The notes below the pieces were generated by a model, which made no database searches, had not been told where the DNA came from, and saw only the letters and a list, made by a program, of their open reading frames with translations. 54,674 nt of DNA from Promethearchaeota archaeon (lineage in GTDB: Archaea; Asgardarchaeota; Lokiarchaeia; Sigyniarchaeales; SOKP01), in the NCBI GenBank assembly GCA_008080735.1, contig SHMW01000021.1:1-54674 (forward strand), written 5' to 3'. This document shows, piece by piece, positions 14,798 to 23,485 of this stretch (position 1 is its first letter; each line of letters starts with the position of its first letter). The position numbers and the translations under genes are program-made.

Positions 14798-15415
14798 ATG
14801 TCTCAAGAAATAGTTGTGCCCGGAGCTTGCGGCGTTGCGATTAAATGCAAGGATGGAGTGGTCTTAGGAAACGATAGGCGCGCGATATGGGGATATACCG
14901 TAACTAACAAATCTACGAAGAAAGTCTTTAAACTGACCGAATACATCGGAATGGCAGCTTACGGTCTTATCGGGGATTATCAGATGCTCACAAAAATCCT
15001 TCATGCGCAAGCTAACTTATATAAGTTAGATACGCGTGAACGTATATCAACAAAAAGCCTTGCGAAGCTTCTATCAAATTATCTCTTCTCGCGAAAGATG
15101 GCCCCACTCTATACCAACCTCGTAGTTGCGGGTATGGATAAGGATGGCCCGAAGTTATTCACACTCGATGCCATTGGTTCCTTAATACCTGAAGATTACG
15201 GTACAACAGGAACGGGAATGCTTTTATCAATGGGAATTTTAGAAGCTGAATATAACCCAGATTTAACCGTCGCAGAGGGAGAAAAATTGGTTGAAAAGGT
15301 CATCAGATCTGCGATGAAGCGAGATGCGATGTCTGGCAACGGAATCGACATTCTCACAATAACCGAAGACGGCTCCGAAGAAAAGTTTATTGAAATAGAT
15401 GAATTAGGAGAATAA
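14798..15415 (+). CDS. psmB: 20S proteasome beta-type subunit, lacking catalytic Thr1
   Basis: KDGVVLGNDRR, KKVFKL, GLIGD, TLDAIGS, RDAMSGNGID. The N-terminus is VPG-ACGV in place of G-TTTV. Confidence 0.93.
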   Translation: MSQEIVVPGACGVAIKCKDGVVLGNDRRAIWGYTVTNKSTKKVFKLTEYIGMAAYGLIGDYQMLTKILHAQANLYKLDTRERISTKSLAKLLSNYLFSRKMAPLYTNLVVAGMDKDGPKLFTLDAIGSLIPEDYGTTGTGMLLSMGILEAEYNPDLTVAEGEKLVEKVIRSAMKRDAMSGNGIDILTITEDGSEEKFIEIDELGE

Positions 15416-15689
15416 TTTTTATCATTTCTTTTTCTCATACAGTTCTTTATTAGAAGCCTTATAGTATCAGATCCGTAATTTCTTCAGAATGAGAAATAAC
15501 GCATTTCATTGTTATTTTTTTTGCGGGTATTGTTGAAGTTTGGAATACTGCAAATCATAATGCTTCGAAGCTCCAAAAGGATTTAGAAGTAATTATTAAA
15601 CGGTTTGAAGACATTTAGAAATAAATTTGTTCCATAAAGATTTATTGATTTGTTTCATTTTCGTACTTAAACCGCAATTTCAGTGTGAA

Positions 15690-17753
15690 ATGGATTTGAA
15701 GTTAATAAACAATACGTTTGGCGAAAAAAGACAAGTAGCAGGTTTTTCTAAGGACGAGTTAGTGGAAATAAAAAGAAAGATTTCTGATTTTAAATCGGGC
15801 AAATTAACTCAAACAGAAGTTATGGAGTTACTTCAGAGAAAATTTCCAGAAGATCTATTGGAAGAGCATTCCAAATACATTGAGAATATTGAGAATTTTA
15901 TTAATACATATCTCAAGCAAGTCTCAAAGAGTCAAAATTTAGGTGAATTTAACTTTTTTTATCTTAAAAAAAAACTTTTAGAAGAAATAGATCTTATTTC
16001 TAATAACTTATTAAACCTTAAACTAAACTGCCAAAATTCCAAGAGATTCTTGAAAGACCATCATTATCTCAATGATTATATCTCAAGAATTAATCTGGTA
16101 TTTGAAAAAACGAAAGAATTACAGTCATCTTTACAGCCAATAGGTAGGCCTCCGCTTGATTTTGAAGATTTATCCCGTATTTGGTTTGACATGAATAAAC
16201 TGAAAAATTTTAAATTTAAAATGAAAAAGCCGATCGAGGATCAAATAATTTGGGAAGAAATATCAAATTTATACGATTACTTGACTAATAAAGGTGAAAA
16301 GGAAAAAAAGGGGGGAATTTTCAGCAAGAAAGAGTTAGAAATTATATTTTATTTTAAGATTTTGAATAACTATATTTCTAATTTACCTCAAAAAAATGCG
16401 GATTTTTACCTCGATTTGTTATTCCTCCTACATAAGAGTGACCTACTTAGTGTCCTTGAGGAGCAAGAATTTTCAAACATTCTTGAAAGAAAAGAAGCGA
16501 AAGATGAGATAAGAAGATATCTCCGCTCAATAATTAAGGAGGTAATTAGGGCCAACTTAGAGGAGTTCATTCAAGAGGTCTACAGATATGAGGAAAAGAC
16601 AGATTATGAAGGAGGAGATATTCAAAAAACTATTGAAGATCTCCTAGAGAAAAAAATTAAAATATTACTACCAAAATTCATCGATCTCTATTTTAATGGT
16701 TTAGAAAAACACTATCTATCAATCATTGCAAACTCAGAAGACTTCCACCAATTTGAGACTATTATTAATGAATATTCAAACAACATAGATGGAGTTTATG
16801 AAAGCATTGAAAATATCAAAGTTTATACGAATCATTACAAACCGTACTTAGATCCTTATGAAGAAATGCTTGAGTCTTTACACAAAATTTTTTCGAATCT
16901 ATTAGACAACATATACCGTCGAAAAGAAGAATTTATTTATCACCTTGAGGCAATACAACAGGAACGAATGAAGCAAGAGATAAGAACATATACATCAGAA
17001 AAAATCGAGGAACTAAATTCTCTCATTGAAAATTATCGTGATGAGGTTGCCGTATTATTAAAACAAAAGATGCCCCACCTTGAAAGTATTGAGGGAATTA
17101 TCAATACCTATAAGCATAAAATCAATAAAATAAAAGATGATGTTTACAGCAAGCTAAAAGAACAAGGACAAGAAGACTTGGATCAATATCAAATCATTAA
17201 AAATTGGGAAGAGAATTATAAACGCAGAAAAGAGCAAATTGGATTTTTGCTTTCGCAGTATTTAACAAATTTATATAAAGATTTTGAAGGTTTAATTGAA
17301 AAGGAAGAAGCTCTGTTCAACAGAATCAAAGATATATCTCAATATGGAGATGAACAAGATGAAGTACCATTAAATTATGCATTCTCTAGCTTTTTAGCAA
17401 ACAAGCTCACTGAAGATGAAATGCGGGAGCGTATGGTCGAATTAAAAGCCAAAATTAATAGCCTTAACCATCTGAAAGCTTTATACGAAGATGAATTGTC
17501 TCACCTAGAAGATACATTAAAAACAAAAGTGAAGATAAGAGAAGGGATTGCAACTTCTAATGTCCAGTGTGGAGTATGCAGAAAAGAGATCAATTTTGCT
17601 GATGATAAAATCATTAAATGTCCATTTTGTGATGCCGTGTATCATTATTTGTGTGTGGCCTTTTGGCTGTCAAAATATAATAGTTGTCCTTCGTGTCAGA
17701 ACGCATTTTTGGATCCTAATCAAAGTATTTATGAAACTCAACAAGAAGAATAA
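15690..17753 (+). CDS. Large helical/coiled-coil protein with C-terminal C4HC3 RING (putative E3 ligase)
   Basis: CGVC-x13-CPFC-x4-H-x2-C-VAFW-x6-CPSC. Probable start ATG 15690 (track start TTG 15627). Confidence 0.8.
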   Translation: MDLKLINNTFGEKRQVAGFSKDELVEIKRKISDFKSGKLTQTEVMELLQRKFPEDLLEEHSKYIENIENFINTYLKQVSKSQNLGEFNFFYLKKKLLEEIDLISNNLLNLKLNCQNSKRFLKDHHYLNDYISRINLVFEKTKELQSSLQPIGRPPLDFEDLSRIWFDMNKLKNFKFKMKKPIEDQIIWEEISNLYDYLTNKGEKEKKGGIFSKKELEIIFYFKILNNYISNLPQKNADFYLDLLFLLHKSDLLSVLEEQEFSNILERKEAKDEIRRYLRSIIKEVIRANLEEFIQEVYRYEEKTDYEGGDIQKTIEDLLEKKIKILLPKFIDLYFNGLEKHYLSIIANSEDFHQFETIINEYSNNIDGVYESIENIKVYTNHYKPYLDPYEEMLESLHKIFSNLLDNIYRRKEEFIYHLEAIQQERMKQEIRTYTSEKIEELNSLIENYRDEVAVLLKQKMPHLESIEGIINTYKHKINKIKDDVYSKLKEQGQEDLDQYQIIKNWEENYKRRKEQIGFLLSQYLTNLYKDFEGLIEKEEALFNRIKDISQYGDEQDEVPLNYAFSSFLANKLTEDEMRERMVELKAKINSLNHLKALYEDELSHLEDTLKTKVKIREGIATSNVQCGVCRKEINFADDKIIKCPFCDAVYHYLCVAFWLSKYNSCPSCQNAFLDPNQSIYETQQEE

Positions 17754-18964: not shown

Positions 18965-19129
18965 TCTAATATAATAAGACTAAACTCAATTAAATGTGTA
19001 TTTTTTAGTATAAAGGATAATGATAATTAATAGGATTGAGATCATTCATTTAAATAGGCAAATTACTATCTATTTATTATTCTAAATATTTAAAATCTAA
19101 TCTACTAAAAATAAAAGAGGTTAATAAAG

Positions 19130-19492
19130 ATGAGTTTTGATGAGTTTGATGATGAATTTGATGAAGAATTAGAAGAACCAACCGGTAAAACTCCATCTTC
19201 AGATATTAAATCCAAGACTCCGGTTATAAAAGGTCCAGGAGGAGGTAAGAAATTATCACTGTTTTTCACTTCTACAATTGGACCAGGAGAGAAGAAACAA
19301 AAATTAATTGTGGATGATGCGAATAATATAGGAGCGATTAAAGAAACAGTTGGAAATATTTTTGGATTAGACCCTACTGATTTTCACCTATCTTCCGGAG
19401 GAGTGACTATGGACGAGGCAAATCCTCTAAGTGAATACAATGTAGAGGATGGAGACGAAGTGCTTTTGATACCAGCGAGCACTGCTGGATAG
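19130..19492 (+). CDS. Ubiquitin-like modifier (beta-grasp) with acidic N-terminal extension and single C-terminal Gly
   Basis: IGAIKETVGNIFGLDP…FHLSSGGVTMDEANPLSEYNVEDGDEVLLIPASTAG*. GAGGT RBS at 19117; first gene before an E1. Confidence 0.88.
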   Translation: MSFDEFDDEFDEELEEPTGKTPSSDIKSKTPVIKGPGGGKKLSLFFTSTIGPGEKKQKLIVDDANNIGAIKETVGNIFGLDPTDFHLSSGGVTMDEANPLSEYNVEDGDEVLLIPASTAG

Positions 19493-19589: not shown

Positions 19590-20816
19590 GTGAAAGAAGA
19601 TTCAAATTTCTTTAGCGAAGAATTATCGGCAAATGAAAGAGATCTTTATGATAGGCAATTCAGATTAGAGGGGTGGTCTCAGCAGATTGTAAAAAATGCT
19701 ACAGTACTAATTGCGGGTATAGGAGGGCTGGGATGTGAAATTGCGAAGAATCTAGCCATGGTTGGAGTTGGACGGTTAGATTTGGTAGATATGGATATTA
19801 TTGAATATTCTAATTTGAATCGCCAAATATTATTTGTTGACGCTGAGATGGGAGAATCAAAGGCGATTGCCGCTGCCAAAAAGCTTAAAGATATAAATCC
19901 ATTTATCGAGATTAATGGATATAATACATCCCTAGAGCGTTTAGACCCAATTTTATATAAACAGGCGGATGTAATTGTAGGGGGCCTTGACTCGATGAAT
20001 GCTCGGTTAAATCTGAATGCTCAAGCAATTCGATTTGATAAGCCTTTCATTGATGGCGGTGTATCTGGATACCATGGGCATATATATACCATTTTTCCCT
20101 ACGAAAATGCCTGCTATGAATGTAATCCATTACCAACCTCAGAAATTGATGATATGGCAGCCTGTACTGTAGTGGGTATTCCGAGAAAAAGGATTCATTG
20201 TGTTTTTAAAGCAAATATGAGTTTTGAGGAAGAACATGAAAGAGGTCCAAATGTAAAAAATATTAAAGAGATTTCTTATATACAAGAGAAAGCTAATGAA
20301 TTAGCTGAGAAACATAATTTCCTTCCTTTATTTAATAAATCAGAAATCATCAAGATATTAGACCAACATGACCCTGGGATTATTACGATTAATGCGATTA
20401 TTTCCTCACTTCAATCCCATGAAGTTATAAAAGTCCTTCATTGGCTCAAGAATAACACAGCATTAGGAGAACCCGTAAAAAACTATGTGGTGTTTAATGC
20501 TATGACGATGAAGTTTTATCGTATTCAAAAACAGAGAAATTCCAATTGTATTCAATGCGGAAATAATGTGAGAAGGGAAGAAATAACAATAAACCCCACT
20601 GATGAATGTGAAAAAATAATAGATAAATTAAAACAGAAAGGATACCGTTTAGATCCCGATATGGAACCCATTTTAACCTTATTAGATTTTGACGATATTA
20701 AAATTGTTGATCTTGATGAAAGTAGTGAAGAAAATAAATTAAGAGATTTCGAACTCATAACTGCTGCTGGATTTCATAAGGGAGAAGTTTACGTAACTCT
20801 CCGAATTAAGGATTAA
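19590..20816 (+). CDS. Ubiquitin-like activating enzyme E1 (ThiF/UBA3-like)
   Basis: YDRQ, GIGGLGCE, D…IEYSNLNRQILF, SKA, Zn motifs CYEC and CIQC, catalytic-Cys region ACTVVGIPRKRIHC, and a C-terminal extension of UFD size. Confidence 0.93.
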   Translation: MKEDSNFFSEELSANERDLYDRQFRLEGWSQQIVKNATVLIAGIGGLGCEIAKNLAMVGVGRLDLVDMDIIEYSNLNRQILFVDAEMGESKAIAAAKKLKDINPFIEINGYNTSLERLDPILYKQADVIVGGLDSMNARLNLNAQAIRFDKPFIDGGVSGYHGHIYTIFPYENACYECNPLPTSEIDDMAACTVVGIPRKRIHCVFKANMSFEEEHERGPNVKNIKEISYIQEKANELAEKHNFLPLFNKSEIIKILDQHDPGIITINAIISSLQSHEVIKVLHWLKNNTALGEPVKNYVVFNAMTMKFYRIQKQRNSNCIQCGNNVRREEITINPTDECEKIIDKLKQKGYRLDPDMEPILTLLDFDDIKIVDLDESSEENKLRDFELITAAGFHKGEVYVTLRIKD

Positions 20817-21002: not shown

Positions 21003-21530
21003 TTGTCATCAAGGAGTAGAAGAGTTAGCCAAGATTTTGCATTGCTAAAAAAGATGAGAAAGAATGGTGATATTATTCAATTAAAACCATGGGACAAGAA
21101 AAAAAAGAGTATTGATCACCTGAAAATCACTATTCCAGGACCTAACGGGACAGCATATGACGGAGGATATTTCCGTTTGGAAGTAAAATTTCCTAATAAT
21201 TATCCAAAAGTTCCTCCATTCGTACGTATGCATACACCTATCTGGCATCCAAATTTTTGGCCGAAGCCCCACGAATATAAAGGTCAGCGGAATATCTGTT
21301 TAGCATTAATCGATCCAAACTATGTTGGTAAGAAGGGCGGATGGAGCCCATCAAAAACTATTAAAACGGTAATTCAAGCAATCAAGGCGATGCTAAACAC
21401 AAGAGGAAAATATGTCAATCCTACCGATGTTTTCAACAAGAAAGCAGCTATTGAAATGATGGAAAAGCCAAAAAAATTTGAAAAAAAAGTTCGATACCTT
21501 GTTAAAAAATATGCAAATGAAAAATGGTAG
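21003..21530 (+). CDS. Ubiquitin-conjugating enzyme E2 (UBC fold)
   Basis: GPNGTAYDGGYF, FPNNYPKVPP, IWHPN…NICL (catalytic Cys), GWSP. TTG start. Confidence 0.93.
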   Translation: MSSRSRRVSQDFALLKKMRKNGDIIQLKPWDKKKKSIDHLKITIPGPNGTAYDGGYFRLEVKFPNNYPKVPPFVRMHTPIWHPNFWPKPHEYKGQRNICLALIDPNYVGKKGGWSPSKTIKTVIQAIKAMLNTRGKYVNPTDVFNKKAAIEMMEKPKKFEKKVRYLVKKYANEKW

Positions 21531-21539
21531 GTAAATGGG

Positions 21540-22334
21540 ATGGAAAATGAAAATAACAGTCAGAAGGAATCTCTTAAGAATAATTTAAAAAGAGAGATTA
21601 AAGAGACGTTAAAATCAGAAATTATAAACGAGATTGTCTCAGAGCTAAAGGCAGAGGAAAGTACCCTAAAAAAAGAGTTAATAGAAATTTTAAATCAGAA
21701 GATCAACTCCGAAAATATTGAGCAATTCGCGCGAGAAGAGAAACAAAAAAAAAGACTTAAATCGGGAAAAGAGCCCGAGTGTTATATTAGTGTGAAAGCC
21801 ATATTGAAGATTAGCAGCCACGCATTAAAATATGCTAATGAAAATATACCTAAAGAAGAATGGGTAGAGGTAATAGGATTATTAGCGGGTAAAATAAACA
21901 AGAAAAATCAAAAACTATATATCGAAGACGCATATCCCATGGGACACGGTAATGCAGTATTTGCAGAAATTAAGGAATACAAAAACTTTGTAAAAGCATT
22001 CAAGGATATTAAGAGAAATGGTCTTTTTATCTGCGGATGGTATCATTCTCATCCCTCATACGGGGCATTTATGAGTGCAGAGGATTTGGGAACTCAAGCA
22101 CGATATCAAAAATTATGGGATAAATCAGTTGCGCTCGTAATCGATCCTTATCAAATCGATGGAAGCTCTTATGGGTTCAAAATATTCCGCTCTAATTTAC
22201 AGACCCAGAAGTGGTATTCTATTCCTTTTGAGATAACTGAGTCTTTGGGAGTTGGTGCCCTGCCAGAATTGATGGAATTCATTAGGCCTATTATTGATGG
22301 CCAAGCATTATTCTTGGAATATGATGAAGAATAG
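21540..22334 (+). CDS. JAB1/MPN+ (JAMM) metalloprotease, Rpn11/CSN5-like
   Basis: ISVKAILKISSHA, EVIGLL, GWYHSHPSYGAFMSAED (HxHx7Sx2D), ALVIDP. N-terminal coiled-coil extension. Confidence 0.93.
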   Translation: MENENNSQKESLKNNLKREIKETLKSEIINEIVSELKAEESTLKKELIEILNQKINSENIEQFAREEKQKKRLKSGKEPECYISVKAILKISSHALKYANENIPKEEWVEVIGLLAGKINKKNQKLYIEDAYPMGHGNAVFAEIKEYKNFVKAFKDIKRNGLFICGWYHSHPSYGAFMSAEDLGTQARYQKLWDKSVALVIDPYQIDGSSYGFKIFRSNLQTQKWYSIPFEITESLGVGALPELMEFIRPIIDGQALFLEYDEE

Positions 22335-22360: not shown

Positions 22361-23485
22361 ATGTTTATTAAAAAAAGATATATTATTCCACCTTCTATTA
22401 GTTTGATATTTGCTCTAATACACGGAATATTTATTGAACCTTCTCTAAATATATTTCTCTCATGGACTTTAGTGGGCCTATGGGTTGATTATGTTATTAA
22501 ATTTTTTGAAAAGATTAAGAACTATAGAGAATTTAATTCTCCTCATAATACTTCTTTTTTTGTAATTAGTGTGATTTTCATAGGACTGTTTTATCTTTAT
22601 TCGGGTTATTATACCCGTCTGTTTAATGAACTTTTAATTGATTTGGATCTGGTCTATGTATTGCTAACTCCTTGGATAACTATTTTTTCCTTTCCCTTCT
22701 TACTCTATGGAATATATTCTCTTTTTGCGTGTATTAGGAAGTATGAGGTAGTATATATCTATAAAGAGCGGTCTGTGAATGCGCGCAAGTTTTCTATTGG
22801 TTTCTCGATATTTATCCTCATTCAAAATATGGTCTTCCTAATTCTAATCTTGGAAGAAGAGCCCATTCTAACATTTAAACCAATTTTCCAATATCCCGAT
22901 TTGATTTTCTTAATTATTACAATTTTTTTGGTAATCCTTCCCATATACGGGGTTTTGAAAAAAGAACCGAGTATTTCAGATATAACACCTGAAGCCATTG
23001 CGAGTAGAAGAGATCAAGTGAGAAGCATTGAATCCGCAGCGTCAAGAAGTTCACAATCTAGACCCTCTCGTCCAACTCAGAGACATATCGAACCAAGAAG
23101 CAACACTACTTCACAAAGGACTAAAAGAAAACCACAAACTAAAAAGAAAACAAAAAGTAAACGGAAGCTGTCAAAAGATGAAATTATCAAGAGAATAAGA
23201 AGTATGAAGCCTAAAGCGGGTATACTTAATCTTGAGGATTTTAAATGCATTTTTTGTTTCAATCTGCCACATTATCCCCAAGATAAAGGAAGGGGTATTG
23301 TTCTCTGTCCGAATTGTAAACATCCCGCTCATGCAGATGAATTTAGAGATTGGCAAAGACATTCTAATCTATGTTCTCGTTGTGATGCGGAAATTCCTTA
23401 CTCCTTTCGAACAAATCCCAAAATTATCCATGTAAAGTCCTATGTAAAAGTAATCGAATATTTTAAGAAAAAGGAAAATCTATAA
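22361..23485 (+). CDS. Polytopic (~6 TM) membrane protein with C-terminal RING-like finger (putative membrane E3)
   Basis: Six hydrophobic segments in the first ~200 aa, a Ser/Arg/Lys-rich linker, then CIFC-x16-CPNC-x4-H-x2-E-FRDW-x6-CSRC. Confidence 0.78.
   Translation: MFIKKRYIIPPSISLIFALIHGIFIEPSLNIFLSWTLVGLWVDYVIKFFEKIKNYREFNSPHNTSFFVISVIFIGLFYLYSGYYTRLFNELLIDLDLVYVLLTPWITIFSFPFLLYGIYSLFACIRKYEVVYIYKERSVNARKFSIGFSIFILIQNMVFLILILEEEPILTFKPIFQYPDLIFLIITIFLVILPIYGVLKKEPSISDITPEAIASRRDQVRSIESAASRSSQSRPSRPTQRHIEPRSNTTSQRTKRKPQTKKKTKSKRKLSKDEIIKRIRSMKPKAGILNLEDFKCIFCFNLPHYPQDKGRGIVLCPNCKHPAHADEFRDWQRHSNLCSRCDAEIPYSFRTNPKIIHVKSYVKVIEYFKKKENL

Follow-up and report, generated by a model that had tools for sequence, protein, structure and literature searches.

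A ubiquitin-type modifier with an Ala-Gly tail encoded in a conserved operon of Asgard archaea

The system of Caldiarchaeum subterraneum comprises ubiquitin (CsUb), E1, E2, a RING E3, and CsRpn11 (PDB 6fj7, 6fnn, and 6fno), which together form an operon-encoded eukaryote-like cassette. CsRpn11 both matures pro-ubiquitin and cleaves ubiquitin conjugates (PMC6043591). A ubiquitin modifier operon of Asgard archaea, from Lokiarchaeota and other lineages, is already on record according to the passages of PMC6043591 and PMC9192718 that cite it. The locus analysed here lies in a 54,674-nucleotide stretch of the genome of a Promethearchaeota archaeon, which is referred to as the window and has a G+C content of 31–36%. 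It represents the same operon as that recorded for Asgard archaea, with the best homologues in Lokiarchaeota and Promethearchaeota and a conserved gene order.

The locus also encodes the same kind of cassette as that of C. subterraneum. CsUb is the best Foldseek match of its 120-residue modifier, hereafter called the tag, and CsRpn11 is the best match in the PDB of its JAMM protease (8e-15), followed by Rpn11 and CSN5. However, CsUb has a Gly-Gly end with an extension that is cleaved off, whereas the tag ends with Ala-Gly and has no extension. The tag further differs from CsUb in the Pro at position −5, a 40-residue-long acidic N-terminal tail, and a Ser in place of Ile44, and the identity of the two proteins is about 23%. 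A literature search found no description of the invariant LLIP[AS]S[TI]AG tail, of the acidic N-terminal tail, or of tandem poly-tag genes. The tag belongs, as a typical member, to the known ubiquitin-type cassette of Asgard archaea, and its Ala-Gly tail is conserved and has so far gone undescribed. Very likely, it is the conjugatable modifier with which a eukaryote-like ubiquitin system operates in Asgard (Loki-type) archaea, and it is composed of a ubiquitin-type β-grasp domain and a disordered acidic N-terminal tail.

The tag gene and its operon

The open reading frame of the tag (positions 19,130–19,492, plus strand) is translated into 120 residues. It begins with an ATG codon, which is preceded at a distance of eight nucleotides by the Shine–Dalgarno-like site GAGGT (19,117–19,121, plus strand), and the TAG stop codon directly follows the codon of Gly120. 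The C-terminal end of the protein is ...EDGDEVLLIPASTAG, with LLIPASTAG as the last nine residues. An earlier interpretation of this DNA without database searches, the sequence-only reading, had held that the tag has no di-glycine and is mature as translated. Both claims are borne out: the tail is Ala119-Gly120 instead of the Gly-Gly of ubiquitin-type modifiers, and Gly120 is the free, exposed last residue of the translation product, so that no C-terminal trimming is needed in the case of this gene.

The N-terminal 37 residues of the tag contain conserved acidic and aromatic repeats and a KSKTP motif. They have pLDDT values below 50 in the AF2 model and are predicted to be disordered; K29 and P31 from the KSKTP region are invariant in an alignment of 59 Asgard homologues. 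Residues from about 40 to 115 constitute the β-grasp domain, with pLDDT of about 90 over residues 41–115. The sequence downstream of K71 is without Lys or Arg. Therefore, proteomics based on tryptic di-Gly remnants would miss conjugates of the tag.

The tag is co-encoded with an E1 that has a Cys domain, a UBC-type E2, a JAMM protease, and a putative RING protein. The E1 activating enzyme (408 residues; 19,590–20,816, plus strand; Pfam ThiF, 5.5e-58) has the ThiF fold with a catalytic-Cys insert and is UBA3-like. Its best match in the PDB is the NEDD8 E1 UBA3 (2e-36, residues 33–349), followed by UBA1, UBA7, and SAE2, whereas the match to UBA5 reaches only 5e-17. The E2 (175 residues; 21,003–21,530, plus strand; Pfam UQ_con, 3.9e-27) is of the canonical UBC type with an HPN motif and a downstream Cys, and its matches in the PDB are Ubc15, UBE2T, UBE2R, UBE2F, and UBC9. 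The JAMM metalloprotease (264 residues; 21,540–22,334, plus strand; Pfam JAB, 7.3e-14) is Rpn11-like, and its translation includes the motif H-S-H-x7-S-x2-D. The fifth position of the operon, as in most of 80 related loci, is occupied by a multi-pass membrane protein (22,361–23,485, plus strand), the translation of which ends with a Cys/His-rich finger. A Pfam search of this protein gave no match; it is a putative membrane RING E3.

A second putative E3, which would be soluble, is a helical protein of 708 residues that terminates in a RING finger (15,627–17,753, plus strand; Pfam zf-RING_2, 3.2e-05, below the cut-off). The assignments of the RING proteins are derived from sub-threshold Pfam matches or from sequence read by eye. 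The gene of the 708-residue protein is positioned downstream of that of a proteasome β subunit (14,798–15,415, plus strand; Pfam Proteasome, 3.4e-50). Two minus-strand genes separate the gene of the 708-residue protein from that of the tag.

Synteny was determined by a related-locus search and tblastn. Most of the 80 loci, which are from genomes labelled as Loki-, Hel-, Hermod-, Hod-, Thor-, and Odin-archaeal, have retained the order of the genes for the ubiquitin-like protein (Ubl), E1, E2, JAMM, and membrane RING protein, and the linkage of the tag to E1, E2, and JAMM is near-universal among them. In close relatives, the proteasome β gene accompanies the cassette, and synteny of the gene of the 708-residue RING protein with psmB and the Ubl operon is seen in loci L021, L022, L026, L032–L034, and L076. 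A role in anti-phage defence was also considered and rejected; PADLOC returned only generic E1–E2 and JAB domain matches, as the shared ThiF and JAB folds predict.

The homology of the enzymes and the order of their genes suggest how members of the tag family may be charged, transferred, and cleaved. The adjacent UBA3-like E1 would adenylate Gly120 and form a thioester with it, and the tag would be handed on to the adjacent UBC-type E2. RING proteins, for which the membrane protein encoded last in the operon and the 708-residue protein encoded next to the proteasome β subunit are candidates, would direct the tag to lysines of substrates, from which the Rpn11-like JAMM would remove it.

Archaeal ubiquitin-like proteins of the SAMP, Urm1, and MoaD kind are common, and a sulfur carrier that also serves as a tag would be activated by a MoeB-like E1 and would not need an E2. 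Genes of MoeB-like ThiF proteins are also present in the genome, and two of the 59 members of the tag family have marginal matches to ThiS, with E-values of 0.14 or worse. However, the E1 contains a UBA3-type catalytic-Cys region, and the tag is co-encoded with a UBC E2, RING proteins, and an Rpn11-like JAMM. Furthermore, the tail is AG and not GG, and the fold and profile of the tag, described below, are of the ubiquitin type and not of the MoaD/ThiS type. It is therefore exceedingly unlikely that the tag is a sulfur carrier.

Comparison of the tag with ubiquitin and UFM1

The score of the tag against the Pfam model of ubiquitin (PF00240) is 23.3 bits, which is below the curated cut-off of 25.4 bits; the model is matched by all 59 aligned members of the family, with the best E-value of 9e-8. 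Comparison of 162 domains from the family with ubiquitin units using hhalign gave probabilities of 96–97% and E-values from 1e-9 to 1e-11. A profile search of the PDB with the tag identified ubiquitin, the ubiquitin of Caldiarchaeum, and Hub1, and the neighbours of the tag in the Atlas are clusters of ubiquitin, Rad60-SLD, and Ubl5. The best Foldseek matches to the AF2 model are Caldiarchaeum ubiquitin (6fno/6fj7; E-value 2e-7), ISG15, ubiquitin, and NEDD8, with TM scores (target) of 0.77–0.88 to ubiquitin and ISG15. In two VIA searches, the Z-scores to ISG15, ubiquitin, Dsk2, and NEDD8 were 13–14.4. According to AF2, Foldseek, and VIA, the tag has the ubiquitin-like β-grasp fold.

The tag shares with the eukaryotic modifiers ubiquitin, NEDD8, and ISG15 the β-grasp domain (Z-scores 13–14), the length of the tail, and the motif LSxYN[IV]. 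The segment LSEYNVEDGD, which the sequence-only reading had recognized as ubiquitin-like, aligns with LSDYNIQKES of ubiquitin. In a global profile alignment that is ungapped through the C-terminus, residues V70-L71-R72-L73-R74-G75-G76 of ubiquitin fall on I114-P115-A116-S117-T118-A119-G120 of the tag. Leu8 and Val70 of ubiquitin correspond to Ile50 and Ile114, and Arg72 corresponds to Ala116. The position of Ile44 is occupied by the invariant Ser88, and therefore the recognition of the tag by ubiquitin-binding domains may differ. Lys11 and Lys27 of ubiquitin have counterparts in Lys55 and the invariant Lys71; by contrast, the tag is without Lys at the positions of Lys48 and Lys63, which are taken by Val92 and Asp107. 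The differences from ubiquitin thus include the penultimate Ala, the Pro in place of L71, the Ser88 in place of Ile44, and the additional N-terminal tail.

The sequence-only reading had attributed a UFM1-like geometry to the tail and regarded the tag as an intermediate between ubiquitin and UFM1-type modifiers. The resemblance of the tails is real. Eukaryotic UFM1 has the sequence KHGSELR[IL]IPRDRVG with a short extension behind it, and the spacing G-x-E-x3-IP-x4-G is exactly common to the two proteins, as is the single C-terminal Gly that follows a non-Gly residue in I-P-x4-G (LLIPASTAG versus R[IL]IPRDRVG). However, the tail of ubiquitin has an equal length (V70-L71-x4-G76), and what the tag has in common with UFM1 but not with ubiquitin is confined to the Pro and the penultimate residue other than Gly. 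A local profile alignment favours the placement of IPASTAG on an internal NPAQTAG of UFM1, and motif matches as short as this can arise by chance.

If the single-Gly tail were derived from shared descent with UFM1, the tag would be a UFM1-type modifier or an intermediate form. The UFM1 query of 79 residues was validated by database UFM1 proteins that were 100% identical to it, and the subsequent comparisons used database sequences. The full-length hhalign score of the tag family against the UFM1 alignment is 17–20, compared to 11.1 ± 2.1 (maximum 17.6) for column-shuffled UFM1 controls and 2–14 for ubiquitin against UFM1. However, the corresponding probability is only 4–12%, and that from a separate profile comparison of the tag family (A1) with the UFM1 alignment (A3) is 7.3%. 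When the nine-residue tails were removed from both profiles, the score decreased to 10.6–11.7, which is the background level. Therefore, all of the resemblance to UFM1 is located in the tail motif.

Other searches for UFM1 gave a consistent result. The Pfam Ufm1 model (PF03671) did not match the tag at E-values up to 10 or any of the 59 family members, and its search against the whole genome yielded nothing credible. UFM1 chains were absent among the best 50 fold matches listed for the tag by Foldseek and the two VIA searches. Instead of a UBA5-type E1 and a UFC1-type E2, the operon encodes a UBA3-like E1 and an E2 with the UQ_con domain, and searches of the genome (93% complete) gave no match to UFC1 or to the C78 protease. 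A UFL1/DDRGK-like winged-helix protein is encoded on another contig (C2) and could be taken as a sign of a UFM1 pathway. No Ubl, E1, or E2 genes were found in the neighbourhood of its gene, and a link of the tag to this protein is unsupported.

Genuine relatives of UFM1 in Asgard archaea provided a positive control. The scan of 301 Asgard genomes with PF03671 produced only sub-threshold matches, among which a few small frames covered most of the model. These frames encode 83–103 residues that end with ..VINRGVVG, ..IIDRGIVG, or ..IVPRDLLG and one to four additional residues, and the family is present in 35 of the 301 sampled genomes; the same scan did not find it in the genome studied here or in its genus. 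Alignments of the family (A2 and A4) match eukaryotic UFM1 with probabilities of 96.4% and 92.1%, but the tag family with only 0.8–12.5%. An AF2 model of the UFM1-like protein (pLDDT 88.9) has UFM1 at all Foldseek ranks from 1 to 12. The family has its own cassette, composed of a UBA5-like E1 (4e-25 to UBA5), a JAB protease, the UFM1-like gene, and a UFC1-like E2 (26–27 bits to PF08694, above the cut-off). At least 18 of 30 loci show this order, and some loci encode the UFM1-like protein as a fusion to the E2. The Asgard UFM1-like family is a real relative of UFM1, and the ‘Ufm1’ that has been reported for nine Asgard clades (PMC12962969) most likely refers to it and not to the tag family.

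Since the control recovers UFM1, the methods separate UFM1-type from ubiquitin-type proteins, and they place the tag with ubiquitin. The UFM1-like family resembles the tag in having one C-terminal Gly with a residue other than Gly before it and in a weak N-terminal motif F-x-S-x-IG..E-x-KQ, which the two share in a weak local match with a probability of 12.5% (in the form [LF][YF]F-x-S-x-IG..E-x-KQ). By contrast, the enzymes differ: UBA3-like and UBC for the tag, UBA5-like and UFC1-like for the UFM1-like family. The sequence-only reading had made the intermediate depend on a closer structural or profile match to UFM1 than to generic β-grasp folds. With a profile probability of 96–97% for ubiquitin against 4–12% for UFM1, and with the Pfam matches of the family, the listed fold matches, and the partner enzymes of the ubiquitin type, the proposed intermediate is largely refuted, and shared descent of the tail with that of UFM1 is highly unlikely. 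The tag is a relative of ubiquitin and not of UFM1.

Conservation of the Ala-Gly tail and the function of the JAMM protease

The best homologues of the tag are all from genomes labelled Lokiarchaeota, Promethearchaeota, Helarchaeota, Hodarchaeota, Thorarchaeota, or Heimdallarchaeota. The presence of the family in Thorarchaeota-labelled genomes (P0078; L092) contrasts with the report that Thorarchaeota seem to be without true ubiquitin (PMC9192718). Residues I114, P115, S117, A119, and G120 are invariant among the 59 aligned Asgard homologues; the terminal Gly, the conservation of which the sequence-only reading had required among orthologues, is thus kept. Distant cluster representatives retain IP-x-S-x-AG and vary only in the x positions. 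The proteins end exactly with AG in 88 of the 120 best homologues and extend one to three residues beyond it in the other 32. Among 70 operon-adjacent copies from other species, drawn from the 80 loci in species-representative genomes, the AG end is present in 45 and one to three extra residues in 25. The tag family is thus consistently characterized by Ala-Gly in place of Gly-Gly.

Two homologues contain complete tag units in tandem, three in P0121 and two in P0122. Each unit ends with AG (STAG, or SQAG in one unit), the units have an acidic linker, and the last one is followed by a two-residue cap, which gives the proteins a polyubiquitin-like layout. Because every tandem unit keeps the acidic N-terminal segment, this segment belongs to the mature tag. 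The polyprotein forms imply that cleavage occurs exactly after AG. The invariance of G120, the ends with AG or a short extension, and the tandem units identify the terminal Gly as a conserved and functionally exposed residue.

These features also bear on the alternative that the tag is a non-conjugated protein with a ubiquitin-like domain, for example a shuttle or adaptor of the proteasome or Cdc48, the Gly of which is never activated. The alteration of the Ile44 patch (Ser88) would fit such a function, and the conserved acidic N-terminal tail with the KSKTP motif could serve for docking. The structural matches of the tag include the UBL domains of Dsk2, Rad23, and BAG6, and other Asgard genomes have a paralogue on the minus strand with the end IPSRKEKN, which contains no Gly, showing that non-conjugatable relatives exist. 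However, a domain of this kind would be difficult to reconcile with an invariant terminal Gly that is followed by the stop codon at once or one to three residues later, with the cleavage after AG implied by the tandem forms, and with the near-universal linkage to E1, E2, and JAMM. It is therefore very improbable that the tag is not conjugated, and the reading of the tag as a conjugatable modifier is retained.

According to the sequence-only reading, the JAMM would act as a deconjugase rather than a maturase. This agrees with the tag from the operon studied here, which requires no trimming, but cannot be extended to the whole family, because the C-terminal extensions and tandem genes of orthologues make a maturase necessary. 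The JAMM is the only protease encoded in the tag operon, and in species with extra C-terminal residues or tandem copies it would mature the tag in addition to removing it from substrates. CsRpn11 cleaves a substrate in which the penultimate Gly is changed to Ala (G77A) slowly, whereas the Gly-to-Val substrate is not cleaved (PMC6043591). The slow cleavage of the Gly-to-Ala substrate indicates that Ala119 is compatible with JAMM chemistry, but it probably requires a co-adapted pocket in the JAMM of the operon.

A second ubiquitin-type system and implications of the Ala-Gly tail

The tag is not the only ubiquitin-type protein of this organism. Contig C37 of the same genome encodes an 83-residue-long ubiquitin, which scores above the Pfam cut-off and ends with ATQAGG, and contig C118 encodes another E2 together with another E1, of 533 residues. 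Relative to ubiquitin, the invariant Pro115 and Ala119 of the tag replace L71 and G75, and Ala116 is located at the position of R72. Residue 72, which is Ala in NEDD8 and Arg in ubiquitin, separates these two eukaryotic modifiers, and it is proposed that there is a parallel in the insulation of the tag by its tail. The tag has Ala116 at the position of Ala72 of NEDD8, and the E1 from its operon is closest to the NEDD8 E1 UBA3.

Pro115, Ala116, and Ala119 would most likely make the tag specific to the E1 and JAMM of its own operon. A tail of this composition may insulate the operon tag from the Gly-Gly ubiquitin, which has its own candidate E1 and E2. Tentatively, the Ala-Gly/Pro tail may constitute a specificity code that enables one Asgard cell to maintain two insulated ubiquitin-type pathways, one with the AG tag of the operon and its UBA3-like E1, E2, and JAMM, and the other with the ubiquitin from C37 and the E1 and E2 from C118. 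If this were the case, the two pathways would represent in archaea what the split between ubiquitin and NEDD8 is in eukaryotes, and they would predate eukaryotes.

Annotation pipelines that demand Gly-Gly or a score above the Pfam cut-off would overlook the tag. The results sort two Asgard tagging systems that are easily confused: the widespread operon encoding Ubl, E1, E2, JAMM, and RING proteins is of the ubiquitin type despite the lack of Gly-Gly, and the UFM1 lineage is separate from it. This separation matters for reconstructing which of the eukaryotic tagging pathways were already distinct in the archaeal ancestor.

A UFM1-type cassette in other Asgard genomes

Other Asgard genomes encode a four-gene UFM1-type cassette that is distinct from the operon of the window and consists of a UBA5-like E1, a JAB protease, a UFM1-like tag and a UFC1-like E2 (loci L126–L150; for example, L130:845-3275, L138:325-2300 and L127:48-1785). 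The cassette is preserved in at least 18 of 30 loci, and in some loci (L145, L148–L150) the tag is fused to the E2. The UFM1-like tag ends in ..RG[VI]VG. Its comparison with UFM1 by hhalign gives 92–96%, and the best 12 Foldseek matches are all UFM1. The UFC1-like E2 matches PF08694 with 26–27 bits. UFM1 and UFC1 have been described as restricted to eukaryotes (PMC10183829). The cassette was not found in the genome from which the window derives.

Further ubiquitin-type and UFL1/DDRGK-like genes of the window's genome

The genome of the window encodes a second ubiquitin, a stand-alone protein of 83 residues on the minus strand of contig C37 (C37:16846-17094, corresponding to L009:1489-1740), which matches PF00240 with 37.9 bits, exceeding the cut-off. 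It ends in ATQAGG and does not form an operon with an E1 or E2. A second E1 and a second E2 are located on a single short contig, C118, where a 150-residue UBC-type E2 (L019:303-755, plus strand) is separated by a 465-residue protein and a 203-residue open reading frame from a 533-residue Cys-domain E1 (L019:3105-4706, minus strand). Contig C2 encodes a 784-residue protein composed of repeated winged-helix/PCI modules (L020:5939-8296, minus strand) that matches the families E3_UFM1_ligase (68 bits) and DDRGK (45 bits); its C-terminus is weakly Vps28-like, and no ubiquitin-like protein, E1 or E2 was found among its neighbours.

Paralogues, tandem genes and fusions of the operon tag

Many Asgard genomes contain two additional tag paralogues adjoining the operon, positioned approximately 1.8 kb (minus strand) and 2.2 kb (plus strand) upstream of the operon tag (loci L037 and L039–L098). 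One of them is a second copy with a C-terminal Ala-Gly (AG end). The minus-strand paralogue is about 35% identical and ends in IPSRKEKN, lacking the glycine, and is presumably non-conjugatable. In the genome of the window, at a completeness of 93%, the operon copy of the tag was the only one found.

The search of representative proteins identified tandem genes of the operon tag family with three units (P0121, 372 residues) and two units (P0122, 250 residues). Each unit comprises a beta-grasp domain together with an acidic linker and a KSKTP motif, and terminates in AG (STAG in all units except one with SQAG); the final unit is followed by a two-residue cap. In the operon tag, residues 1–37 (window 19130-19240) form a conserved N-terminal tail, predicted to be disordered, that contains FDEF/DEDL acidic-aromatic repeats and the KSKTP motif, in which K29 and P31 are invariant. 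The tail is kept in the tandem units and therefore belongs to the mature tag.

Larger proteins, including P0125 (307 residues), P0139 (564 residues) and other long representatives, carry an AG-ended tag domain fused at their C-terminus. These domains would be either built-in tags or precursors that release no free tag. The tandem genes are an archaeal analogue of polyubiquitin genes.
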